From: Centroscyllium fabricii
Lineage: Eukaryota
Length of the DNA: 64,000 bases
Direction of reading: 5' to 3'
NCBI GenBank assembly: GCA_051313645.2
Contig: JBNRSN020000005.1
Location: 192,882,001 to 192,946,000 of the forward strand
Position 1 is the stretch's first letter. Every line of letters begins with the position of its first letter. Position numbers and translations under genes: made by a program. A model generated the notes under the pieces. It was not told where the DNA came from. It was given only the letters and a program-made list of their open reading frames with translations, and did no database searches. Of this stretch, positions 318 to 64,000 are shown piece after piece.

Positions 318-3300
318 GATGTCCCATCCACTGGTTAATTCAGTCCCTGACCCAACAGACACCCGTCCCATCCACTGATTCATTCAGTCCTGACCGAACA
401 CTCACACGTACCATCCACAGATTAATTCTGTCCCTGACCCAGCATGCACAATCCACATTCACTGGGTCATTCAGTCCCTGCCCCAGCATTCACACGCCCC
501 ATACACTGGTTCAGTCAATCCCTGACCAACACTCGCACGTCTCACACACTGGCTCATTAATTACTGATACAAAACCCACACGTTCCATCCACTGGTCGAT
601 TCAGTCCAGACCCAAAACCAACACGTCCCATTCATTGGTTCATTCAGCCTTTTCCAAGCACCCACACGTCCCATCCACTTGTTCATTCGGTCACTGACCC
701 AAAACCCACTCACGTCCCATACCCGGGTTCTTTCAGTCCCTGAACTAGCACCCACACGTCACAAACACAGGCTCATTCTGTCCTGGCCCTATAACCACAC
801 TTCCCATTAATATTTAATTCAGTCCCGACCCAACACCCCCACTTACCATCCAATGGTTTATTCAGTCTTTACCCAACACACACGCATACCATCCACTGAT
901 TCATACAGTCACTGACCCAACACCCACACGCCTCATCCACTGGTTCATTAATCCTGACCCAACACCCACACGTCCCATCCACATGCTCATTCAGTCCGGA
1001 AACAAAACCCACAAGTCCCATGCAGTTGTTCATACTGACCTGACCCAACACCCACACGCCCCATCCACTAATTCAGTTCCTGACACATCACCCATACGTC
1101 CCATGCAATGGTTCATTCAGCCCCAGACCCGTCACTCACACGTCCCACCCACTGTTTCATTCAATCCCTGTCCCAACACCCACACATCCAATCAATAGGT
1201 CATTCACTCCTGATGCAACAATCAAACGTTCCATTCACTAGTTCGTTCATTACCTAAGACAGAACCGACACTTCCCATTCACTGGATCATTCAGTCGAGA
1301 GGCAAATCCCACAGGTCCTATCCACTGATTCATTCAGTCCCTGAACCAACACCCACATGAACCATCCACTTTATAATTCAGTCCTGACCCAACACCCACA
1401 CGTCCCATCCACTGGCTCATTCAGGTCGTTAAAGCACCCACACGTCACATCCATTGGTTCATTCAGTCCTGATGCAACACAGGCACGTCCCATCCACTGG
1501 TTCATTCGTTACGTAGCACAACACACACATGTCCCATCTAGTGGTTCATTTGTTACGTAGCACAACACACACATGTCCCATCCAGTGGTTCATTCAGTCC
1601 TGATCCAACACAGGCACGTCCCATCCACTGGTTCATTTGTTACGTAGCACAACACACACATGTCCCATCCAGTGGTTCATTAAATCCTGAGCCAACAGCC
1701 ACACGTCCCATCACTGGTTCACTCAGCCCATGTGCCAAGACCCACACCTCCCATTCATTGGCTCATTCAGTCCTGAGCCAACACCCACCTGTCCCTTCCA
1801 CTTGTACATTAAGTACTGACCCAAAACGCACATGTCGCATCCACTCATTCATTCAGTCCCTGGCCCAATACCCACATGTCCCATCCACTCATCAATTCAG
1901 TCCCTGACCCAACGCATACACGTCCCATCCACTGATTCATTCAGTCCTGACGCAACACTCACACGTCCCGTCCACATATTAATTCTGTCCCTGACCCAAA
2001 AACGCACAAGCCCCAACCACTGGTTGATTCATTCTCTGACCCAGCACTCACATGCCCGATACACTGGCTCATTCAATCCCTAACCAACACCCACAGGTCT
2101 CATTCACTGGCTCATTCATTCCTGATCTAATACCCACCCGTCCCATCGACTTGTCGATTCAGTCCTGACCCTGAACCAACACGTCTCATCCATTGGTTCA
2201 TTCAGTCTTTCCCCAACACCCACATGTCCCATCCAATTGTTTATACAGTGGCTGACACAAATCCCTCACAAGTCCCATAAACGGGTTCTTTCTGTCCCTG
2301 AACCAACAGCCACACGTCTCAAACACTGGCTCATTCTGCCCTGACCCAATACCCACACGTCCCATAATAGTTAATTCAGTCCCGACCCAACACCCACACT
2401 TAGCATCCACTGGTGCATTCAGCCTTAACACAACACACACGAGTCCCATCTACTGGTTCATTCAATCCTGACCCATCAATCACATGTACAATCCAATGGT
2501 TCATTCTGTCCTGACCCAACACCCACACGTCCCATCCAGTGGACCATTCAGTTCTGAACCAAAATCTACACGTCCTATTCACTAGTCATTCAGTCCTTAC
2601 CCAACACCCACAGGTCCCATGATTGCTTTATTCAGCTCCTGACCCAGTTCCCACATTTCCCATCCACTGGTTCCTTCAATTCTGACCCAAACACGCCACA
2701 TCCATTGATTCAGTCAGTTTTGAGCCAACACAAACACGTCCCATCCATTGGCTCATTCAGTCCTGACCCAACACCCACACGTCCCATCCATTGATTAATT
2801 CTGTCCCTGACCCAGCACGAACAAGCCCCATCGACTGGTTGATTCAATCCCTGACCCAGCACTCACACGCCCCATACACTGGTTCATTCAATCACTAATC
2901 AACAACACCTCTTATACACTGGTTCATTCAATCCCTAATCAACAACAACACGCCTCATACACTGGCTCATTCAATCCTAATCTAATACCCACCCGTCCCA
3001 TCGACTGGTCGATTAAGTCCTGACCCTAATCCAACACGTCCCATCCATTGGTTCATTCAGGCTTTTCCCAACACCCACATGTCCCATTCACTTGTTCATT
3101 CAGTCACTGACCCAAAACACACACATGTCCCATAAACGGGTTCTTTCAGTCCCTGTACCACCACCAACACGTCTCAAACTCTGGCTCATTCTGTTCTGAC
3201 CCAATATCCACACGTCCCATTAATACTTATCTTGGCCTGACCCAACACCCACACGTACCATCTACTGGTGCATTCAGTCTTTACCCAACACGCACACGCG

Positions 3301-25495: not shown

Positions 25496-25930
25496 TGAAA
25501 AATACTTTCTTGATTTCGAGGAACGGGTTATGAAATTGCACCCAGGTCACCATTTCAAAAAGTGAACCATTCTTCGGCCGAGCCCAGAAGAAACATTGTC
25601 CACACATGCGAAGTTTACAGCATAGTAACAGGAGAGTAAACTGGATTAGAAACCCTGGGTTATTTTCGCTCCTAACACAAGTTCATTGAGCTCATTGTAG
25701 GTTCCAACTGCCAGCCCCATATAGACGGGGAATTGGAGCTGGTTTCCTGCTACACCAGGGCAGTGATTTACTGTAAACCCTCTCTCCAGCAGAAGGTACT
25801 ATCACTGGTAAAGTCATTAGATTCTGCCCCTGGATTCAATAATAACGCTGCACATTTCACACAGAATCTTATCATTGTCGCTGTTGCTCTCAGTCTGAAG
25901 AAAAGTTTCCTGTTGTTTGCTTTCTTGCAG

Positions 25931-26832
25931 TGAACTTACTGACGATTGTAATCCTGTCTCGGGGAATGTGCGGTCTCTCCAAGTGTGTCACCCGTTACCT
26001 GGTGTCCATGGCAGCGGCGGATCTACTGGTTGTTGTCACTGATCTCATATCCAGGCAGATTCCTATTAGTTATCGGTACCAGTTTAGGTTCATGTGGAAG
26101 ATTGAAGTCTGTAATATCCACGCCATCCTCCTTCATGCAGCCACAGACTGTTCTGTGTGGTTCACAGTCACTTTCACCTTTGATCGATTTGTGGCCATTT
26201 GTTGCCAGAAGCTGAAATTAAAATATTGCACCGAGAAAACAGCGGCTGCGGTTCTAGGAACAGTGAGTGTGCTGTTCAGTGTAAAGAACATTTTCTGGTA
26301 CTTTATGTATGGAGGTTCATACCATTTTTCCAATATTCCCTGGTTTTGTGTTGTAAGATGGGAAGTTGCTGAATCTCCAGTATGGGCTGTAATTGAAACA
26401 CTTCATTATATTTTAACTCCATTTATTCCATTTGTTCTGATTCTGCTGCTCAATGCTCTCACCATCAGGCACGTTTTAGTGTCGAGCAGAGCCCGCAGGA
26501 GACTCCGGGGTTCCAGCAGCGGGGAGAGTCCCAGAGACCCAGAGATGGAGAAGCGAAGGAAATCCATCATTTTACTGTTTGTTATATCCGGTAATTTTAT
26601 CCTGCTTTGGGCAGTGTTTCTGTTTTATTCTGTGTGTAACCGATTTAATCTGTTGAGATATATTTATGTATATCTACCTCAATATTTACAGGAACTGGGA
26701 TTTATGCTTCAGCTCCTGAGTTGCTGCACCAACACATGTATTTATGCCGTGACTCAGACTAAATTCAGAGAGGAGTTGCAGAATATGCTGAAATATCCCT
26801 TTACTCTAATTATTAAACTCATTAAATTATGA
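25931..26832 (+). CDS. Class A GPCR, GPR139/GPR142-like: main coding exon (end of TM1 to stop)
   Basis: Uninterrupted 300-codon frame with NLLTIVIL (TM1), MAAADLL (TM2), TFDRFVAIC (DRY-like motif), PFVLILLLN (TM5) and CTNTCIY (TM7). It is preceded by a pyrimidine-rich acceptor TTTTCTTGCAG, phase 1. Confidence 0.92.
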
Positions 26833-37675: not shown

Positions 37676-38190
37676 TAACAGCACACGAGAGTGTTAACAA
37701 GATCCAGAACCTGAATGATTTGACGCAGCAGGAATGACGTTCGGTCTAATGGTAGCGCCACCTTCTGCCCACTGACATGACCGCAGAAAGAGACACGCTC
37801 TGCACAACAGTAACATTTACGACTGCCCGCTGACCATCAGATCCTTCCCTAATGCACGTACCATTGTGTCTATTCATTGTGAATAACTCCCTTCACACAA
37901 TCTAGTCGGCAGATTCAAAATTTAGCACAACGGGTACAATTTCAAAACGCACGTTGTTATAGAATACATATACAGATTCAATTATTTCCAGCCCATTAAC
38001 ATTTGTTTTGTTTTGCTCGATCCCCCTAGATCTGATGCACGATTAATTTTAGCGCTCCCTACTGGCCACAGTGTGTTACTGCAGGACGAGAGAAGCTCTT
38101 TAAATTGTAACGTACCCAATTTTCCCGAGATGCGGGAGAACTGCCTGAGGATTGGAAAGTTGCAAATGCGACACCATTTTTCAAGAAAGG

Positions 38191-41100
38191 CTGAACCGGT
38201 TTGTGTTCGTGTACATGGACGACATTTTAATCTTTTCTAAGTCTCGTGAGGAGCATGTTCACCATGTCCAGACTGTCCTGCAACGGCTTCTCGAGAACTC
38301 ATTATTTGTGAAGGCGGAGAAGTGTGAGTTTCACGTCACTACCGTTTTTTTCTTGGGGTACATCATTGCGCAGGGGAGCGTGCAGATGGATCCAGAGAAG
38401 GTGTCAGCTGTCACGTCATGGCCTATTCCAGAGACACGTAAACAGCTACAGCGGTTTCTGGGATTCGCTAATTTCTATCGACGGTTCATTTGCAGCTACA
38501 GCACGGTAACGGCCCCATTATCGGCTCTTACCTCCTCTAAGGTGCCATTCCTGTGGTCTTCTGCAGCGGAGGAGGCTTTTCGAGGTCTCAGGTCCCAGTT
38601 CACCTCTGCTCCCATTCTCCAGGTGCCTGATCCGGATCAGCAGTTCGTGGTAGAGGTGGACACATCAGATGTTGGAGTAGGGGCTATTCTGTCCCAACAT
38701 TCGGCTTCCGACCAAAAGCTACATCCCTGTGCCTATTTTTCCAAATGCCTGTCCTCGGCTGAGATGAACTATGACATCAGGAACCGGGAGTTACTGGTGA
38801 TCAAAATGGCATTGGAGGAGTGGCGCCATTGGCTAGAGGGGACCAAGCTGCCGTTCCTAGTCTGGACAGACCACAAAAACCTTGAATACATTCGCACGGC
38901 CAAGAGGCTGAATTCACGGCAGGCTAGGTGGTCCCTCTTCTTTACCCATTTCAACTTCACCCTCTCCTACCGGCCTGGTTCTCGCAATGTCAAGCCTGAT
39001 GCTCTGTCCTGCCAGTTCCAGAAGGAGGAGGGTTCCGCTCCTGGATCTGACCTCATCCTTCCAGCTCCTTGTCTTATTGCTGCTGTTACATGGGAGATCG
39101 AGGAGAGGGTGAGACCAGCCGTGGAGGATCAGGCTGGACCCAGCGGTTGTCCTCCCGACCATCTATTCGTTCCCACGAACCTTCGACCTGAGGTTCTCCT
39201 GTGGGCCCATGCTTCCAAGCTTTCCTGCCATCCGGGGGCTCAAAGGACCAAAGAGGTTATACTGCGGAGGTTCTGGTGGGATACGCTGGAAGAAGACACC
39301 CGGGAGTTTGTCAATGCCTGCTCGGTCTGCAACCAACACAAGCCGTCTCATCGGGCTCCCGCTGGCCTTCTGCAACCTCTGCCGATACCACATCGTCCTT
39401 GGTCCCACATATCCTTGGACTTTGTTACCGGTCTGCCTCCATCCAAGGGACTAACCACGATCCTGACAGTGGTGGACCGATTCAGCAAGATGGCCCACTT
39501 CATACCTCTGCCTAAGCTGCCCTCGGCGAAGGAGACAGCTGAACTTATGCTGCAACATGTTTTCCGGCTTCATGGGCTTCCTGTAGACGTAGTCTCTGAT
39601 CGGGGTCCTCAGTTTACGTCAGTATTCTGGAGGGAGTTCTGCAGTCTGATCGGGGCCACAGTCAGTCTGTCATCGGGTTTTCATCCGCAGTCCAACGGGC
39701 AGTCTGAACGTATGAATCAGGAGATGGAGAAGGCTCTCCGATGTATGGTCTCCCAGAATCCCTCTTCCTGGTCCCAGCTATTCCTGTGGGTAGAGTAGGC
39801 TCACAACACTCTGACCAGTTCTGCCACCGGACTCTCCCCGTTCCAGTGCGCCTATGGATTCCAGCCCCCATTGTTTCCGGACCTGGAGAGGGAGGTTTCC
39901 TGTCCGTCCATCCAGGCATTTATTCATCGTTGTCGCCGGACATGGGACCAGGCTCGGACTTCGTTGCTTCGCTCGGCGGATCGCTACTCGGCTGCTGCCA
40001 ACCGTCGTCGCTCGGAGGCTCCTAAATATCAGGCTGAGCAGAAGGTATGGCTCTCCACTAAGGACCTGCCTCTCCAGGTGGAGTCAAATAAGCTTGCTCC
40101 CCGTTTTATCGGGCCCTTCGAGATCCAGAAGATCATCAACTCAGCGGCTGTGAGACTCAAGCTTCCTCGATCCATGCGGGTTCATCCCACGTTTCATGTG
40201 TCACGAATCAAACCAGCACGTGAGAGTGCTTTGGTGCCTGTTGCCATGCCCCCTCTGCCTCCTCGTATGCTCGATGGTGGGTTGGTCTACACTGTTCGTC
40301 GCCTACTTCGCTCCCGTCATTGAGGGAGAGGACTTCAGTACCTGGTGGACTGGGAGGGGTATGGTCCAGAAGAGAGGTCCTGGGTTCCTGCTCGCCACAT
40401 AGTGGATCCTCAGCTTATGGCCGACTTCCACAAGAAGCATCCCGACCAGCTGAGTAGGAGGACTGCGCCCCCTGGGGAGTCTGGGCAAGGGTCCGGTTCC
40501 GTGCATTCTCTGGAAACCCTGAACGAGGATGTACAATCTTCTGATGATGAGAATTCCTTTCATTTTTGTGATGAGATGGACATGGATGAGGGCCCCGAGG
40601 AATGTTAGTCCCTCCTCCTCACCCCTCCGCCCAGCCGATTCCGGCATATGGGGTTTGGGACGTCAGGAGTCGTCCCTTGAGGGGGGGGTTCTTTCATAGG
40701 TTAGATTCCCCTTTAACTCCTAGGTGGGCTCTTCTCCTTTACACTGGTCAGCACCTCGTTAACTACTGCATGCACCTGATTGGACAACCCAGATTAACCA
40801 GTAGTATCTAGAGCTGTATATACGCTCCCACTTTTCACCATGAGGTTGCCAGATCGTTAATTCTTCTGACTGTGATACCTGTGTTTAGTTCCTAGCTCTC
40901 TGATCCTGTCTGTTCGTGATACTGACCTGCTTACCGGAAATTTGGATTCTCTTCTGCTTGAACTCTGTTTTTGGATTAGTCGCTCCCGTGGACGGACTAC
41001 CCGGAATATTACTGTTTCTGAATTTGGATTCTCTCCTGCCTGAACTCTGTTTTGGACTTGTTGCCTCCGTGAACTTTCTGCCGTTATTGACCTACTGTTT

Positions 41101-41192
41101 CCCATATCTTTTGACTGCTCAGAAAATAAAGGAGTTTACTTCTACGCATGTTTTTGGTGTATTGCATTTGGGTCCAACCTACAACCATTACA
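38191..41192 (+). mobile_element. Ty3/gypsy chromovirus (Sushi-like), 5'-truncated: pol 3' part plus 3' LTR
   Basis: RT YMDD, RNase [14 protein letters not shown], integrase HHCC and DDE ([23 protein letters not shown]), GPF motif and chromodomain ([17 protein letters not shown]). Stops at ~39798 and ~40323. G-rich PPT at ~40679-40688; LTR ~40692-41192. Confidence 0.93.
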
Positions 41193-52526: not shown

Positions 52527-54695
52527 TGTAAGAAGCCACACAACACCTGGTTATAGTCCAACAGTTTTATTTGAAGTCACAAGCTTTCGGAGCGCTGCTC
52601 CTTCATCAGGTGAAGTGAAGAGATGCATATAGGCACAGCATATATAGTCAGAAAACAATGCTAGATGATTACAGGTAATTTTTCTAACCACTTTATCACA
52701 CCTCGGCAGAGAGATTTTCACCACAAGCATAGCTGTAAATGGTTTCCAAACAGGTCAGTCAGCAAAAGATTCCATCAAAGAACAATGAGGTGGAGTCACA
52801 AGAGATCAAATGTTGCACATGCTGTATGAAAATAAAAAAACAAACAAAGCAATTAAAAATAAAATGAAAGAAAAATATTTTGCTGGCAATGTTTTGTTAA
52901 AGAAGCCACTCACTAACGACAAACACTGCGAATACACAGGATCTGCTCAGACGAGGAGGAGCGCGATGGACACCTACAGACACTGAAGGATACCCTCATA
53001 TGAATGGGATATGACATTCAACTCATCGATCGACAGATCCGACGGGCCACAGTGAAAAATCTCATTAGCCTCCTCAGAAAACAAAGACGGGACACAATCA
53101 ACAGAGTACCCTTCGTCATCCAGTACTTCCCCAGAGCAGAGAATCTACGCCATGTTCTTCGCAGCCTTCAACATGTAATCGATGATGACAAACACCTCAC
53201 TAATGCCATTCCCACACTTCCACTATTCATCTTCAAACAGCCGTCTAACCTCAAACAGACCATTGTTCGCAGCAAATTACCCAACTCTCAGGAGAACAGC
53301 AACCACGACACCACACAACCCTGCCACGGCAACCTCTGCAACACATGCCAGATCATCAACACAGATACCATTATCACACGTGAGGACACCACTCACCAGG
53401 TATATGGTGCGTACTCATGTAACTCGGCCAACGTTGTCTACCACATACGCTGCAGGGAAGGATGGCCTGGAGCATGGTGCATCGGTGAGAACATGCAGAC
53501 ACTGCGACAATGGATGAACAGATGGGCCACAGCGAAAATTCTCATTTGCCTCCTCAGAAGACAAAGACGGGACACAATCAACAGAGTACCCTTCGTCGTC
53601 CAGTACTTCCCCGGAGCGGAGAATCTACGCCATGTTCTTCGCAGCCTTCAACATGTAATTGATGATGACAAACACCTCACTAATGCCATCCCCACACCTC
53701 CACTACTCGTCTTCAAACAGCCGCCTAACCTCAAACAGACCATAGTTCGCAGCAAAGTACCCTACTTTCAGGAGAACAGCAACCACGACACCACACAACC
53801 CTGCCACGGCAACCTCTGCAAGACATGCCAGTTCATCAACACAGATACCATTATCACACATGAGGACACCACTAACCAGGTATATGGTGCGTACTCATGT
53901 GACTCGGCCAACGTTGTCTACCACATACGCTGGAAGGAAGGATGGCCTGGAGCATGGTGTATCGGCGAGAACATGCAGACACTGCGACAATGGATGAACA
54001 GACATCGCACAACAATCACCAGGCAAGAGTGTTCCCTCCCAGTCGGGGAACACTTCAGCAGTTAAAGACATTCAGCCTCCGATCTTCGGGTAAGCATTCT
54101 CCAATTTGGCCTTCGAGACACACGACAACAGAAAATCATCGAGCAGAAACTGATAGCCAAGTTCCACACTCATGAGGACGGTCTCAACCGGCATATTAGC
54201 TTCATGTCATGCTACATGTAACACCACCTGAAGTAGAGTCATCCAGACTCGAGTCGTTGTTGGCTTGTTCTCTCCACACAGATGCAGCTGGACCTGCTGC
54301 GATTTCCAGCAAAACATTTTTATTTCATTTTATTGTTTATTGCTTTGTTTGTTTTTTGTTTTTCATACAGCATGTGCAACATTTGACCTCGTGTGACCCC
54401 ACCGCATTGTTCCTTGATGGAAGATTTTGCTAACTGACCTGTTTGGACACCATTTACACCTATGAATCTGGTGATTATCTCTCTGCCGAGGTGTGATAAA
54501 GGGCAGTTAGAAAAATTACCTGTAATCATCTAGAATTTTTTTCTGACTATATATGCTGTGCCTATGTGCATCTCTGAGGAAGGAGCAGCGCTCCGAAAGC
54601 TTGTGATTTCAAATAAAACTTTTGGACTATAACCTGGTGTTGTGTGACTTCTTACATTTGTCCACCCCAGTCCAACACCGGCACCTCCACATCAT
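52527..54695. mobile_element. Penelope-like element with long inverted termini and duplicated GIY-YIG region
   Basis: ~360-bp inverted arms (52527-52890 and 54302-54659). ORF 53004-54065 has a 480-bp tandem duplication of the C-terminal region (NVVYHIRC..WCIGE). Probable TSD TTTAAT(A/C)AT. Confidence 0.85.
52577..52613 (-). ncRNA. Minimal type I hammerhead ribozyme motif
   Basis: UCAC-CUGAUGA-A-GGAGC-AGC-GCUCC-GAAA-G-CUU-GUGA. Stem I is UCAC/GUGA, stem II is 5 bp, and stem III is the palindrome AGCU. Confidence 0.75.
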
Positions 54696-57560: not shown

Positions 57561-58614
57561 GTCACATGTACGCCAGGTTGATCCATATTTTAGCCTCCCC
57601 CAGTAGATTTAATATTGCATTGATTAGGTTGGTGGATTGACGTCAACATTTGCAGAAGTTACATCATTACAGCAAATTTGAACGTCGGTGGATCAACTGT
57701 TTTTAGTCCAATGCTTCCTTTCATTCTCTGGCTCACAGGAATCAGAGAATGAAATCTTCACATATTCAATTCAATTCAATTCAATTCAAATTGCTTTATT
57801 GGCATGACAAGATACATCCTATGTTGCCAAAGCACAGAAAAAGAACATATACAGTTGGACATACAAATGCATAACCAGACGTATTGAATAAATAACTATG
57901 CATACACATACACATAAAAACCCGCATATAGATCTAAAAAGAACATATACAATTGGACATACAAATGCATAACCAGACGTATTGAATGAATAGCTATGCA
58001 AACACATACATATATACCCGCATATAGAGCTTGTATGCTCTTCCTAGCTTCAATGGTCACTGGTTGTCCCTCTGCTTATGGCAAGCTGTGACGTAGTTTG
58101 CCGCTAATTTTATACAGTCCCTCTGTTCCCCCAATAGATATGGGAGTTTTTGGTGGTCGTTCAAATTTTTGAATTCAGGGCATGTTGTTGCAAATTTTGG
58201 GAAGAAATTTCCCCTTATTCCCTGATAGTTTTCGCAAGTTGTGAGGAAGTGCAGCTCTGTCTCCGCCACTCCCTGACTGCAGTGGGAGCACAGCCTTTCC
58301 TCTCTGGGCAGCCAAGTCTTTCTGTGTCTGCCTTTTTCGATGGCTAGGCTGTGCTCGCTAAGTCTGTACATTGTCAGGGTTTTTCTCAGTTTGCTATCTT
58401 TCACCATGGACAGGTAATCAGCCATGGTGTACTGTCTGTTTAGGGCCAAATAACAATCTAGTTTGTTTTGGGTTTTTGTCATTTCTGTCCAGTAATTCAA
58501 GTATTTTTCTTTTTGTTTAGTAATAATTGTGTTGGGTCGGATTCTGAGTGCTAGGACGTCACTGTCCTGGGGCTGGTTGTTACCAGTAGTGTTAGTAGTT
58601 ACTCCGCTAAGTTG

Positions 58615-61600
58615 TGTCATGGATTGGACTGTTCCTTTAAGTGTCTAGATGTTTTCTTTCCTGTTTATTGGACTGTTCCTTTAAGTTTCTAGATGTTTCC
58701 TTTCTGTTTATTGGGTTATGGCTTCATATCATGTCCTTCACTGGATTGGCCGGATCCAATTAAACAATTAAGCTGGAGCTGGTTTTAAGCTTCCAGCTGG
58801 CACTTGATCTTTGCCAGTTCATTAGTTTCTGGTACTAGAGAGAGTGAGAGTTCTGTTTTGCTATACCTATTCTCATGTCACTGGTTGAAGTGTTCAGTGT
58901 TGCCGTATCCTGTTACTGGTAGATTATATTGTGTTCTATTCCAGTCGTTTTTGGATTACCAGTTTTCGGTCGATTTGGATTTACTTGCTGTACTCGGAAC
59001 AAAGATTCATCTCCTCTGGACTGTGAATTACTGGGAGTACCTCCGCACCTGGCTTTGGGCCTTGTTACTACAACCTCCTGAACTTGGGTTTGGACTTGTG
59101 AATTGCTGTTTACCGGCACTCGGGATTATTGACTATTTCATTCATTGTTATTGCACTGTGGTTAATGCTTTCTGTATATTGTTATATTCATATGTTTTGA
59201 TACTTAGGAATAAAGGCACTTTATTTCTACTAGACAGACTTCGGTGTTCTGCATTTGGGTCCTACCCGAACCCTCACAGAACGAACTGGCCAATTATGGA
59301 CCCAGCGGAGACACCGAAGCGTCTGGCACGAATCGAGGACACCCTAGCACAACTAGGTCAGGTCTTGGGGGAAATGATTTCCAAAAATTGCACTCAGATG
59401 GAGCAGTTAACCATCGCCTGGAATCAGCGGGTAGCGTCGGATTCGGCAGGGGTCTCGCTACCATCACCCTCGAATCCAGAGGGGCTGGCACCCATGCCTC
59501 AACTAATAGCTCCCGCACTCGAACCCCGTGTCAGGGTACCAGAACGATATGCCGGTGAACCCGAGCAGTGTGAGCCTTTTCTCACAAGCTGCTCCATACT
59601 GTTTTCGTTGCAGCCCCACACCTTTGCCAATGAGAAGACAAGGGTGGCTTTTGTAATAAATCACCTCACAGAAAGAGCCCGGCTTTGGGGAACCGCCGAG
59701 TGGGAGAGAAATACTCAGGCTTGTTCTTCTTTCGAGGCGTTCTCCACCGAATTAAGAAGGGTGTTTGGCAAGGTGAGATTTGACTCTGAAGCAGCTCAGG
59801 GACTCATGAGTCTGAGCCAGGGAAACCAGACAGTGGCTGATTACGCTATTAATTTTCGAATCCAGGCTCGTCGGAGTGATTGGAATCAGGCTGCATTACG
59901 GGAGGTTTTTCTTCATGGTCTGGCTGAATATATCAAGGATGACCTGGTCTCCTACAATCTTCCCCCCACCTTAGAAGAACTCATTTATCTTTCCACCAGG
60001 ATCGATCTTCGGATCCAGGCGCGCCGACGTGAGAGACGACTGGGAACGTCTGGTCGACATCCTCCAAGTCGGAATCCAGAGGTATTCATGACACCCAGGG
60101 AGACTGCGATAGCAAGGTCAGAGCGAGTGGGCCCCGAACCAATGCAATGGGGTCGCACTCAAGGGAGATTCGGGGTGCCCAGAGATACTGTGACAGCAGG
60201 GGTGGAACCAGGGGGTCCAGAGCCTATGCAGGTGGGTCGCACCAGTCTTCGGATGGCAAGGTATAAGGGACCGCACTCACCAATCAATGGAGTCGTAATG
60301 ATGAGCCGAACTCCTGATGGACTCTCTCCCAACCCACGACCCTTGTGTCAAGCAAAATTTCTTCTCCCCAGAGGATCCCAGACTCTCGTCATCTGTATTG
60401 ACTCTGGAGCGGACATTAATATCATTGATGAGGATCTGGTCACGCAACTGGAGATTGACCGGGAGCCACTGCCACAGCCGTTTCCTGTCCACACCTTAGA
60501 TGGCCATCTCTTGGGAACAGTGACACACCAGACCTCACCTGTTCTGATGCTTCTGTCTGGGGATCATCAGGAGAGTATTCAATTCCACATCTTGCGATCA
60601 CCTCAGATTCCGTTAATTCTGGGACACGCTTGGCTTCGCCGCCACAACCCACACATTGATTGGAACACAGGAGATATTTCGGGCTGGAGCCTTTTCTGTC
60701 ACCAGGTCTGTCGGAGACGGTCTCAGACTTCGGTGCTTCGCTCAGCGGACCGAGACCCGCCTGCTGCCAACCATAGTCGTTCTGGGTCTCCTGAGAAGCA
60801 GGTTGGGCAGAAGGGGTATGGTCCAGCGGAGAGGCCCTGTTTTCCTGCTCACGATATAAGGGATATGCAACCCATTAACGACTCTCACGGGAGCCACCCC
60901 GACCAGCCAGATAAGAGGACTATGACTCATGAGGAGCCTGGGCAAGTGATCGGATCCATACAGTTACAGGAGAGCCTGGCCGAGGAGGAGGAACCTGATG
61001 ATGAGTGGGAATCTGCTGATGAAAAGGATTCTTTTCAGTCAGATTATGAGACGGACATAGAGGAGTGCTTCGAGGACTATTGGTCCTCCTCCGCACCCAT
61101 TTACCCGCCCGATCCGGCATTTGAGGCTTTGGGACGTCAGGAGTCGCCCCCTTAAGGGGGGGGTTCTGTCATGGATTGGACTGTTCCTTTAAGTGTCTAG
61201 ATGTTTTCTTTCCTGTTTATTGGACTGTTCCTTTAAGTTTCTAGATGTTTCCTTTCTGTTTATTGGGTTATGGCTTCATATCATGTCCTTCACTGGATTG
61301 GCCGGATCCAATTAAACAATTAAGCTGGAGCTGGTTTTAAGCTTCCAGCTGGCACTTGATCTTTGCCAGTTCGTTAGTTTCTGGTACTAGAGAGAGTGAG
61401 AGTTCTGTTTTGCTATACCTATTCTCATGTCACTGGTTGAAGTGTTCAGTGTTGCTGTATCCTGTTACTGGTAGATTATATTGTGTTCTATTCCAGTCGT
61501 TTTTGGATTACCAGTTTTTGGTCGATTTGGATTTACTTGCTGTACTCGGAACAAAGATTCATCTCCTCTGGACTGTGAATTACTGGGAGTACCTCCGCAC

Positions 61601-61830
61601 CTGGCTTTGGGCCTTGTTACTACAACCTCCTGAACTTGGGTTTGGACTTGTGAATTGCTGTTTACCGGCACTCGGGATTATTGACTATTTCATTCATTGT
61701 TATTGCACTGTGGTTAATGCTTTCTGTATATTGTTATATTCATATGTTTTGATACTTAGGAATAAAGGCACTTTATTTCTACTAGACAGACTTCGGTGTT
61801 CTGCATTTGGGTCCTACCCGAACCCTCACA
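58615..61830 (+). mobile_element. Young non-autonomous Sushi-type LTR retrotransposon (gag-protease only)
   Basis: 664-bp LTRs at 58615-59278 and 61167-61830 (TG..CA, 3 differences seen), 5-bp TSD AGTTG, and PPT AAGGGGGGGG before the 3' LTR. Confidence 0.95.
59296..61155 (+). CDS. Gag-aspartic protease-acidic tail fusion ORF (619 aa)
   Basis: Starts MDPAET; capsid-like PERYAGEP..LSQGNQTVADYAINF..FLHGLAEYIKD; protease IDSGADINII..LILGHAWLRRHNPHIDW. No RT, RNase H or integrase core. Confidence 0.85.
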   Translation: MDPAETPKRLARIEDTLAQLGQVLGEMISKNCTQMEQLTIAWNQRVASDSAGVSLPSPSNPEGLAPMPQLIAPALEPRVRVPERYAGEPEQCEPFLTSCSILFSLQPHTFANEKTRVAFVINHLTERARLWGTAEWERNTQACSSFEAFSTELRRVFGKVRFDSEAAQGLMSLSQGNQTVADYAINFRIQARRSDWNQAALREVFLHGLAEYIKDDLVSYNLPPTLEELIYLSTRIDLRIQARRRERRLGTSGRHPPSRNPEVFMTPRETAIARSERVGPEPMQWGRTQGRFGVPRDTVTAGVEPGGPEPMQVGRTSLRMARYKGPHSPINGVVMMSRTPDGLSPNPRPLCQAKFLLPRGSQTLVICIDSGADINIIDEDLVTQLEIDREPLPQPFPVHTLDGHLLGTVTHQTSPVLMLLSGDHQESIQFHILRSPQIPLILGHAWLRRHNPHIDWNTGDISGWSLFCHQVCRRRSQTSVLRSADRDPPAANHSRSGSPEKQVGQKGYGPAERPCFPAHDIRDMQPINDSHGSHPDQPDKRTMTHEEPGQVIGSIQLQESLAEEEEPDDEWESADEKDSFQSDYETDIEECFEDYWSSSAPIYPPDPAFEALGRQESPP

Positions 61831-64000
61831 AGTTGGTTGTTAACAGTAGTGTTAGTAGTTACTTCGCTAAGTCCCAGGACTAGTTGGCTGAGGGGACTTC
61901 TCTTTATGTTCGCTTCTTGGCATTTCAGGGCTTTGTAGTGATAGCTGTGGGGGTTGCTCAGTTTTAGATGTTTCCAGAATTTGATTGCTCTTTTTTGGAT
62001 ATTAATTAGTAGTGGATATTGGCCTAACTCTGCCCTGCATGCATTGTTTGTGGTTTTCCTCTGAGTCCAGAGGATACTCTTACAGAACTCAGCATGTAGG
62101 GTCTCAATTGGGTGTTTGTCCCATTTTGCAAATTCGTGGTGTGTTAGCAGACCCCACACCTCGCTGCCATAAAGTGCAATTGGTTCAATTACTGAATTAA
62201 AAATTTTGATCCAAATGCCAGGTGGAATTTCTATTTGGATTGACTTCTTAATGGCATAGAATGCCCTTCTAGCTTTCTCTTTCACTTCATTCACAGCCAA
62301 GTGAAAATTTCCCGTGGAACTGATTTTTAAGCCTAAGTATGTGTAGTTTGTAGTTTGTTCAATTTTTGTTGCTCCTAGTGTGAAGTTTGTTTTGTTTCCC
62401 TGATGTCTGGATCTTTGCTGGAACACAAGAACTTTGGGGTTTTTTGGGTTTATTTTCAAGGCCCAATTCTGGCAGAATGACTCTAACCAATCAAGGTTCT
62501 GCCGTAGACCCTCTTCTGTCGGAGACAGCAGAACCAGATCATCTGCATACAGGAGGAATTTAACCTCAGAGTCATGTAGGGCGAGGCCAGGTGCTGTAGA
62601 TTGTTCCAGTGTTTTTGCCAGTTCATTTATATAAATGTTAAAAAGAGTCGGTGAGATAGACGAGCCCTGTGCCACACCACAACCCTGTGGGAAATACTTT
62701 GTTTGTTTTATCTCCGATTTTAACTGCACATTTGTTACCTGTGTACATTGATTTAATTACATCATATGTTTTTCCCCCTATCCCACTTTCAAGGAGTTTT
62801 AGGAATAGACCATCATGCCAAATAGAATCGAATGCCTTTTGGAAATCTATAAAGCAGGCAAAAATTTTGCTTTTGTTTTGGTGGACATGTTTGTCTATTA
62901 GGGTCTGTAGGGTGAAAATATGGTCAGAGGTTCTATAATTTGGTAAGAATCCAATTTGGCTGTTAATCAGGACATTGTGCTCCGTAAGAAAGCTTGTGAG
63001 TCTTTTGTTTATGATACTACAGAATACCTTCCCCAGATTACTGTTCACACAGATGCCTCGGTAATTGTTTGGGTCAAGTTTGTCTCCGCTTTTAAATATG
63101 GGTGTTATGAGTCCTTTGTTCCAGACTTCAGGGAAGTAACCGACACTCAGAACCAAGTTGAAGAGTTTTAGGATAGCCAATTTCATTTTATCATCAGTGT
63201 GTTTTAGCATCTCATTTAGTATGCCATCTGCACCACCTGCTTTTCTTGGTCGCAGGTCCTTAAGTTTTTCAGATAGCTCTCTTTCAGTTATTAAGGAGTC
63301 TAAGGGGTTTTGGTAATCCTTTATGGTCAATTCGAGTTTTTCCAATTTTTTACGTATTTGATCTTGCTCTGGGCTTAGTGTGTGTTTCTGGTACAATTGT
63401 TCAAAATGGTTTTCCCATGTCTCACCATTTTGAATGGGCAATTCGTCTTGTTGCTTTTTGTGTAATGTGTTCCAGTTGTCCCAGAAACTATTTGAATCAA
63501 TAGATTCTTCAATGTCGCTGAGTTTGTTCTTAACATACTGTTCTTTCTTGGTTCTGAGTGTGTTTTTATATTGTGTTAGTGCCTGACAATAGGCAAGGCG
63601 TAATTCCTCATTTTTTGGTTGTCTATGCTTTTGGTTTGATATATTTCTGAGTTTTTTCCTCATGTTATGACAGTCCGAATCAAACCATTTCTCGTGGTTT
63701 CGTGTCTTGGACTTATTCTGGGAAAAGAATTTCAAGTCGGACATTGATGCCAATTTATCAAAAATATTATTAATGTTGTTCACTGCCAGGTTTACGCCTT
63801 CTTTATTGTGGGTGTATGTGTTTTCCAGAAAAGTGCCTAAGAGCGATTGAGTTGATTGACTGCTAATTGCTTTTTGGTATTTTTCAGTGCTGTTTTGGGC
63901 CCATCTGTATGATTTTTTAATTTTGTACAGCTTACTGGGCTGTGTTTCTGTGATGGTTGTTTCCGCTCTTTTGATATACGCAGTAATTTGGCTGTGATCT

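Follow-up and report, generated by a model that had tools for sequence, protein, structure and literature searches.

The window, a stretch of 64,000 nucleotides of the Centroscyllium fabricii assembly, contains a 3216-bp element (<4 kb) with long terminal repeats (LTRs), a primer-binding site (PBS), and a polypurine tract (PPT). The element is likely a young copy of a non-autonomous family of the Tf1/sushi group (Ty3/gypsy chromoviruses), which encodes Gag and protease, depends on a helper, and has been copied in its deleted form. Its Gag and protease belong within the Tf1/sushi group, in a clade with autonomous chromodomain-bearing fish loci (support 100/100), and share 50%–67% identity with teleost elements. 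The Sushi element present in the same window is only 70%–78% identical to it. Features of the element are listed in the table.

Features of the element and its insertion site (window coordinates)
Feature	Position	Strand	Basis or remark
Host LINE reverse transcriptase (RT) ORF, split by the element	61782-62756 + 58057-58644 (span 58057-62756)	-	Pfam RVT_1
Left target-site duplication, 5 bp	58610-58614	+	same letters as 61831-61835; empty-site joints skip 3221 bases
5' LTR, 664 bp	58615-59278	+	begins TGTCA, ends TCACA
TATA-position motif, 5' LTR	~58783-58788	+	aligns with TATATA box of neighbouring Sushi LTR; putative promoter
Putative RNA 5' end (self-primer)	58813-58823	+	one mismatch to PBS in 5' LTR copy
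AATAAA, 5' LTR	59209-59214	+	
Self-priming PBS, Tf1/sushi type	59280-59290	+	11-nt complement to LTR
Gag, residues 1-~250: N-terminal helix plus two-lobed capsid	59296-60045	+	Pfam; AlphaFold2; PEG10 fold match
Tandem duplication of PEPMQ segment, in frame, 84-nt period	60094-60242	+	alignment
Junction D0, net ~71 nt lost (122 vs 51)	60250-60265	+	alignment with relatives
Aspartic protease, DSG catalytic motif intact	60331-60711	+	Pfam; conserved columns; predicted structure
Junction D1 (~60714), removing 2361 nt (spacer, RT, RNase H, integrase core)	60712-60813	+	
Eroded integrase C-terminal helix island, 34 codons, after D1	within 60712-60813	+	
Junction D2, 312 nt lost (GPF/SH3 module, first half of chromodomain)	60811/60812	+	
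Polypeptide end: chromodomain half, acidic tail, stop at PPT	60811-61155	+	alignment; predicted disordered
PPT	61154-61163	+	sequence; conserved in relatives
3' LTR, 664 bp	61167-61830	+	LTR comparison
Right target-site duplication, 5 bp	61831-61835	+	sequence

The near-identical LTRs, target-site duplication, and PPT described in the initial annotation were all recovered. The LTRs differ at 3 of 664 positions (58821, 58904, and 58967; 99.5% identity), and all three differences are transitions in CpG context. The element interrupts a LINE, which we take to be L2-type. Contigs of this LINE without the 3221 bases comprising the element and one target-site duplication were present in all four sequencing runs compared, and the depth of the LINE was very high in each of them. 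The self-priming site, located just 3' of the 5' LTR, was absent from the initial annotation. The 3' LTR copy of the self-primer (61365-61375) is complementary to this site at 11 of 11 nt, positions 58813-58820 pair with the site in both the minimum free energy and centroid folds, and an 11-nt complement was reached in only 2 of 5000 resamplings of the LTR. The leader as a whole showed no unusual structure (z -0.65). Self-priming in place of a tRNA-binding site is a feature of the Tf1/sushi group, according to the accessible part of a published account (PMC6317226).

A single ORF extends from the ATG at 59296 to 61152 (619 codons; stop at 61153-61155), as proposed earlier, and the other two frames over it contain 28 and 31 stops. 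The Pfam domains Retrotrans_gag, Ty3_capsid, and DUF4939 were found in Gag above the cut-off, and the aspartic protease scored slightly below it (best E 8.9e-6). RT, RNase H, integrase, zinc knuckle, and chromodomain had no Pfam match in the ORF at E ≤ 0.1. The product is predicted to have a capsid fold: the AlphaFold2 model has pLDDT mostly >85 across residues 81–250, and its closest capsid fold is that of PEG10, whose capsid C-terminal domain superimposes on the model with an rmsd of 0.6 Å over 77 columns. Two traits had been presented as peculiarities of this protein. Gag and protease do share one frame, but so they do in some autonomous relatives, a -1 frameshift separating them in 8 of the 10 loci nearest to the element. 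The acidic tail is present but inherited, being carried also by the window's Sushi element, by the relatives L003 and L004, and by the contig P0001 discussed below, and was therefore ruled out as an innovation.

Measured against autonomous teleost relatives, the element has lost about 71, 2361, and 312 nt, and the frame stays open through these three deletions and one duplication. Loss D0 takes out the CCHC knuckle, through which RNA is usually packaged, and locks the protease into the gag frame; the A-run and gag stop of the relatives are missing at this junction. Only an eroded half of the chromodomain is left after D2. Alignment upheld the absence of the knuckle, the skipping of RT, RNase H, and the integrase core, and both points at which the ORF had been said to rejoin the window's Sushi pol. 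The duplication of PEPMQ also proved real, as a tandem copy; loose ends at 60174, seen in three runs, are colinear with the second PEPMQ unit. A hidden RNA signal in the integrase island was considered and rejected since synonymous conservation is not raised there, four-fold-site identity lying at the 36th to 89th percentile of pol windows.

Whether these junctions are unique to this copy was evaluated with contigs from the four runs, which come from more than one study and in which depth is not equivalent to copy number. Junction D2 is bridged by a contig of run X4 (60768-60888) with no differences at depth 822 and by a contig of run X7 (60768-61012) with one difference at depth 104, and the LINE-flank and empty-site contigs listed for these runs have depths of mostly 2–40. 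A further in-frame variant with a 54-nt deletion (60788 to 60843) was observed in all four runs, with a short side of 25 letters against a caution line of 30, and several subfamilies are represented among the contigs. Three variant rows suggest that D1 is also common to other copies; no bridging record for D1 was found among the contig records listed, the rows included none informative for D0, and none of the listed contigs shows a second insertion site flanked by sequence of its own. The D2 contigs, together with conserved gag and protease and eroded remnants, support the proposal of a replicating, helper-dependent family with a common junction. It is scarcely credible that one-off deletions after insertion, or an assembly artefact, produced a single such copy. 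The listed contigs include none that covers the element from end to end, and neither D0 nor D1 has a direct bridge, but the near-exact bridging of D2 in runs of two studies already largely refutes this explanation; moreover, the erosion of the remnants far exceeds the divergence of the LTRs, and three random deletions would all stay in frame in about 1 case in 27.

Conserved columns of gag and protease were changed in 5 of 80 cases (3 of 39 in the protease), compared to 11 of 29 in what is left of the integrase and chromodomain (Fisher P = 1.5e-4). In autonomous families, the corresponding values are 108 of 1086 and 32 of 339. Since the remnants are eroded while gag and protease are conserved, and the LTR divergence is far too small to account for this erosion, the deletions long predate the insertion. 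Among the 23 ORF variants relative to sister sequences, drawn from 40 listed of 364 rows, 5 are synonymous and 18 non-synonymous, which fits neutrality (expected synonymous fraction 0.29, P = 0.65). Therefore, no purifying selection is visible in the copy's own recent lineage, and the dN/dS<1 anticipated among sister copies is not seen in the listed variants. The 12 indels listed of 28 include 8 in the LTRs, 1 in the leader, and 3 in the ORF, the last all in one contig and summing to +3. Only about 4% of random changes create a stop, so little can be concluded from a frame that has recently stayed free of stops.

The neutral-like variants and the small weight of the stop-free frame also speak for a passenger family copied in trans through its RNA signals alone. 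In such a family, the ORF would be irrelevant, or would matter only as an open frame avoiding nonsense-mediated decay, and the conservation of gag and protease would reflect selection earlier in its history. The loss of the CCHC knuckle, the direct adjacency of the stop to the PPT, and the long terminal branch of the element (0.34–0.36, versus 0.13–0.27 in most close relatives) agree with this scenario. We nevertheless consider it unlikely because the sparing of gag and protease columns, but not of the remnants, requires selection at the protein level once the remnants had been released. In addition, the catalytic motif remains intact, and the listed ORF indels amount to a multiple of three.

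The helper-dependent Gag-protease family preferred here would have originated from an autonomous ancestor through successive internal deletions, probably by template switching at short microhomologies, and would since have been copied in deleted form. The LTR may drive genomic RNA, and the Gag-protease translated from it would join particles made of helper Gag and Gag-Pol. By analogy with the mouse element IAP 1Δ1, the protein might act in cis, favouring the packaging of the RNA that encodes it. RT and integrase of the helper would complete the cycle, with the 5' end of the RNA itself acting as primer. The frame of the tail has probably stayed open because the tail serves as a passive linker, or because it holds the stop near the 3' end, rather than for chromatin targeting. 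Counting against this reading, besides the neutral-like variants and the lost knuckle, are the failure to find a helper and the metagenome data given below.

Division of labour, which overlaps with the helper-dependent reading, would make the family a mutualist rather than a parasite, with Gag and protease coming from this family and RT and integrase from a partner. Capsid and protease are indeed intact, but Sushi Pol is normally produced as a Gag-Pol fusion, and no pol-only partner was found, the pol fragment in the window being 5'-truncated, interrupted by two stops, and associated with a different LTR. Such an arrangement, although proposed for wheat Fatima subfamilies in the accessible part of one report (10.1101/363192), is therefore improbable here.

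Protein searches revealed no close sister ORF among 52 matches, with identities of at most 67% and high values on short stretches only, and the element's protein itself was absent from the collection searched. The tail-region search yielded one match at near length and one at shorter length, both to protease, and none of the 59 pattern matches in viral contigs was a relative. In metagenome contigs, 79 loci were obtained, of which 69 run from protease to spacer or RT, 6 end too early, and 4 have no protease match; the deleted design was present in 0 of the 69 loci with sequence past the protease. P0062, P0077, P0108, P0129, and P0194, with an apparent jump from protease to integrase tail, as well as P0003, were set aside since they are gene models on long contigs or of unknown source, in which predicted introns can mimic such a jump. 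P0001, a JGI contig of 2266 nt with 46% identity, is similar to the element in its single-frame gag-protease, the same integrase-tail island, a chromodomain part, and an acidic end. It also lacks RT and the integrase core, which could not be hidden in an intron because the contig is too short. Unlike the element, P0001 retains the CCHC knuckle, some of the spacer, and a chromodomain that is largely intact; every breakpoint is different, and neither sequence is derivable from the other. None of 200 bootstrap trees placed the two together, and a single origin was neither shown nor rejected (p-AU 0.365). P0001 is one sequence only, and it could represent a lone copy with deletions or a contig derived from RNA.

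The intermediate toward domestication suggested in the initial annotation is unsupported, since the element is a young LTR-flanked copy that lies within a LINE and whose family has multiple copies. A gene already useful to the host, either in early domestication or as a factor that restricts autonomous Sushi elements in a dominant-negative manner, in parallel to PEG10/RTL, is very improbable. The PEG10/RTL3-like domain set, the PEG10-like fold, and the open ORF are what such a gene would have, but its private variants are neutral-like, it resides between near-identical LTRs in a LINE that is present in high copy and has empty sites at other places, and there are several subfamilies. Domesticated metaviral capsid genes, in the accessible part of a survey, are mostly at least ~100 My old and syntenic (PMC11011659). 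A broader idea, which we regard as speculative and rather unlikely, is that fish Sushi elements repeatedly spawn long-lived satellite families, whose sole product is a PEG10-like capsid-protease entering helper particles in cis without a knuckle, and that these streamlined mobile families, rather than full-length elements decaying after capture, were the raw material for PEG10/RTL. If so, the island kept by both the element and P0001 would be functional, for example, as a helix packing on the protease.

As a helper-dependent Gag-protease family, the element would extend this type of retrotransposon, so far mainly from plants, to the vertebrate Sushi lineage, the source of PEG10/RTL. No vertebrate Sushi precedent was found in the literature searched, outside of which were Repbase, supplements, and most subscription journals, and a prior description may exist. 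The streamlining is recorded stepwise, with the knuckle and frameshift lost together, the enzymes gone, the chromodomain eroding, and a sister further deleted. The family offers a natural test of assembly and self-cleavage by a knuckle-less capsid-protease, and of the reason for which the frame stays open in a defective element.

The element shows no new mechanism, and its design is less unusual than the initial annotation implied, having precedents in wheat, sugar beet, and mouse IAP 1Δ1. With Tf1/sushi chromoviruses of fish (V-clade, Sushi-ichi type), it has in common self-priming, the chromodomain (as a remnant), the acidic tail, and the PPT. However, autonomous members of this group encode RT, RNase H, and integrase, while the element is devoid of RT, RNase H, the integrase core, the GPF module, and the CCHC knuckle, and the -1 frameshift of its relatives is replaced by a fixed gag-pro fusion. 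IAP elements are class II endogenous retroviruses primed by tRNA. In mouse IAP 1Δ1, an internal deletion created one fusion ORF; Gag and Pol are needed in trans, and the fusion protein reportedly helps in cis, according to the accessible parts of two papers (PMC6466679, PMC7411935). Its single deletion of 1.9 kb contrasts with the three deletions of the Ty3/gypsy element, which kept the whole capsid and protease; the two are comparable only in how they may work, since their ancestry differs. The GAG/PROT-only families, namely wheat Fatima subfamilies 1.4 and 1.5 and 28 families of sugar beet, likewise kept gag and protease, lost RT and integrase, and depend on helpers for their spread. They are plant lineages, whereas the element is of the vertebrate Sushi type and has eroded integrase-tail and chromodomain pieces that are read through in frame. 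TR-GAG elements of Coffea and other plants are shorter than 4 kb and have LTRs, PBS, PPT, and a single Gag ORF, but they were selected as having no aspartic protease (PMC4350172); the element matches them in size and terminal features and differs in possessing this enzyme. Finally, the mammalian PEG10 and SIRH/RTL genes have a Sushi-derived capsid with a fold close to that of the element, and PEG10 and RTL3 also have the protease. These host genes are old, fixed, and syntenic, and PEG10 retains the frameshift, whereas the element is a young LTR-flanked copy from a repeat family.

The element is bounded by LTRs of 664 bp that differ at three positions (0.45%), by inspection all transitions in CpG context, and has a 5-bp TSD on both sides. 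It lies antisense within the RT ORF of a host LINE, and LINE contigs without 3221 bases at this site were present in all four public runs examined. The LINE carries a tandem unit at the insertion site, the copy number of which differs between LINE copies (joints skip 3259-3261 or return to 58574). The element contains a single ORF, while the remaining two frames over it have 28 and 31 stops. The LTRs, TSD, PPT and ORF had been described correctly in the initial annotation. Pfam recognized Gag and, slightly below the cut-off, an aspartic protease in this ORF, and no other domain at E<=0.1.

Positions of the element, its deletion junctions and other features in the window
Feature	Position	Details
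LTR element	58615-61830	3216 bp
Gag-protease ORF	59296-61152	619 codons, ends at PPT
Putative self-priming site	59280-59290	11/11 nt complementary to 3' LTR 61365-61375; one mismatch to 5' LTR counterpart at 58813
D0 junction	about 60250-60265	net loss 71 nt vs 6 loci
D1 junction	about 60714	2361 nt lost vs L002, L004, L006
D2 junction	60811/60812	312 nt lost vs 6 of 7 loci and vs the second Sushi element
Segment missing in sister form	60789-60842	in-frame loss of 54 nt with 5-letter microhomology; joint with just 25 letters on shorter side
Host LINE tandem unit	58574-58612, 61834-61872	39 nt (13 codons)
Second Sushi element, pol	38149-41187	truncated 5'; stops at 39796-39798 and 40321-40323; acidic tail; self-primer-like motif in 3' LTR at 40846
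Rhodopsin-family GPCR ORF	25846-26832 (+)	uninterrupted; 7tm_1 E 2e-18
353-aa ORF	53004-54065 (+)	tandemly duplicated unit; presumably resembles end of Penelope-like element

Self-priming is a mark of the Tf1/sushi group, according to the available part of PMC6317226, and the element, judged by its sequence, is derived from this group. The predicted leader fold contained the self-primer pairing in MFE and centroid structures alike, and an 11-nt complement was reached by 2 of 5000 resampled LTRs. With this putative site, which the initial annotation does not mention, the element therefore retains the signals that reverse transcription and integration need in cis.

The anatomy of the element was compared with 79 loci from metagenome contigs. 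In the Gag and protease tree it fell inside a 13-row clade (support 100/100) that includes complete fish elements bearing a chromodomain. The close relatives found for the region 59296-60711 (proteins P0002-P0009, loci L002-L012) all came from teleosts or fish metagenomes; in a cartilaginous host (the initial annotation speaks of sharks), this might reflect horizontal transfer or, equally well, database bias. Versus these relatives, the element has three deletions. D0 both eliminated the CCHC knuckle and placed the protease in the gag frame, two traits noted in the initial annotation. Among 30 loci with adjoining knuckle and protease, a frame change of -1 was found in 19, none in 7 and +1 in 4, and 8 of the 10 closest loci (protease identity at least 57%) had the -1 change. 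D1 accounts for the reported loss of RT, RNase H and the integrase core; versus four further loci, two of them frameshifted, 2275-2388 nt are missing. The GPF module and half of the chromodomain were lost with D2. Alignments with relatives revealed short microhomologies at D1 and D2, which may have originated by template switching. The PEPMQ segment is indeed duplicated, with a period of 84 nt. The acidic tail is also present, with 30 D/E in the 113 residues after the GYG motif, but it is inherited, since it is shared by L003 (16 in 75 residues), L004 (19 in 84) and the second Sushi element (20 in 85); more distant loci of the comparison set lack it. None of the 69 informative metagenome loci, probably mostly collapsed high-copy families, had the deleted design. 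In each of the loci L016 and L024, the 3' portion of a Sushi element precedes the gag of a second one, an order expected from a collapsed assembly or from tandem elements that have an LTR in common.

Part of the internal region was found in 10 public runs (at most 0.55 of its words, or about 98% identity), whose source species may be related to the host species; contigs were compared in four of them. D2 was bridged in two separate studies, by record 11 of run X4 (no differences; depth 822; some 44 letters on one side of the junction and 76 on the other) and record 20 of run X7 (one difference, depth 104). Flank and empty-site contigs listed for these runs mostly had depths of 2-40, with a few joints above; depth is not equal to copy number, and tens of copies is the simplest reading. 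The observation is real and has support beyond what one window alone could give; a one-off deletion in a single copy is hardly credible. Sharing of the junctions by other copies, set as a check in the initial annotation, holds directly for D2. No listed record bridged D1, but three variant rows of run X9 (60713, 60721 and 60744, end distances 60, 52 and 29) all imply that one contig stops at 60773; the row at 60713 has the protease-side letter, and we infer a D1-bridging contig. Neither an informative row for D0 nor a second insertion site was found among the rows listed (40 of 364 variant, 12 of 28 indel, 24 of 1069 loose ends). The listed contigs formed two groups, near-identical (0-5 differences) and about 88-91% identical. 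A sister form with the 54-nt deletion, about 9% divergent in the tail, occurred in all four runs. A loose end at 60812 in X9 runs on into undeleted chromodomain, and this run therefore contains a form that is autonomous or has lost less.

For analysis of conservation, loci with stops or less than 70% cover were removed from a starting set of 18, so that gag was compared over 13 loci and protease over 15; the island (an eroded integrase C-terminal helix remnant between D1 and D2) and chromodomain had 15 and 10 rows, respectively, including the second Sushi element. Of the columns with at least 80% agreement among autonomous families, the element changed 5/80 in gag and protease, versus 108/1086 in these families by leave-one-out (P=0.33). 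In the remnants it changed 11/29 versus 32/339 (P=1.1e-4), and the contrast within the element was likewise pronounced (P=1.5e-4), with one of the 11 columns on a junction, L015 and L024 near-duplicates, and the relatives not independent of each other. Chromodomain erosion is common to records 11 and 20 and therefore predates the spread of these copies; since the LTRs have diverged so little, the deletions are far older than this insertion. On this evidence, gag and protease were apparently under selection during much of the time since the deletions. A passenger family whose protein no longer matters is unlikely, although the expected dN/dS<1 among sister copies was not borne out: the 23 ORF variants listed (best 40 of 364 rows) comprised 5 synonymous, 18 non-synonymous and no stops, fitting neutrality (P=0.65; 4/13 from gag to protease) in a small sample picked by support, with many variants private to this copy's lineage. 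Three ORF indels among 12 listed of 28 were in one contig and summed to +3. Synonymous conservation was not raised in the island.

The element most likely represents a helper-dependent family, with an autonomous relative as the supplier of RT and integrase; its own Gag-protease would be required, or would once have been, and would probably act in cis. The element would then be expressed and its protein would assemble capsids. Division of labour, with the element and a partner each contributing, seems improbable. The second Sushi element was rejected as the helper because it is broken and its short matching stretches have just 70-78% identity.

The best protein match, P0001 (629 aa, 46% identity), comprises gag, knuckle, in-frame protease, a spacer part, the same island, most of the chromodomain and an acidic end, without RT or integrase core. 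Its single JGI contig of 2266 nt leaves no room for either of these inside an intron. Its breakpoints are unlike those of the element, its remnants are little eroded (2/21), and trees did not group the two, one origin being compatible (p-AU 0.365). P0001 could represent a lone deleted copy, or its contig could derive from RNA. P0190 (ENA contigs of 2569-2852 nt) is a 719-aa single-frame gag-protease with the segment before the knuckle duplicated. It has no RT and a partly acidic tail rich in Pro and Ser, and may be a further streamlined or broken form.

AlphaFold2 (30-row alignment; mean pLDDT 70, pTM 0.39) predicted a confident capsid and protease and disordered linker and tail. The Foldseek matches listed for the model included the C-terminal domain of the PEG10 capsid and proteases of retroviral type, but not a chromodomain. 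The element is not a SIRH/RTL-type gene as presented in the accessible part of PMC11011659. Host use of its protein is very improbable but conceivable, since recently active fish elements can provide host-used Gag, for example BHIKHARI (available text of PMC13269885). It lies outside TR-GAG, as characterized in the portion available of PMC4350172, because it has a protease. It fits the GAG/PROT-retaining category, to which 28 of 115 sugar beet families (accessible sections of PMC13570524) and wheat Fatima subfamilies (10.1101/363192, in part) belong. No vertebrate Sushi family of this design was described in the mostly non-subscription literature searched. The GAG/PROT-keeping non-autonomous design is already known and its vertebrate instance appears to be new; the element probably works like IAP 1Δ1, as described in the available parts of PMC6466679 and PMC7411935.
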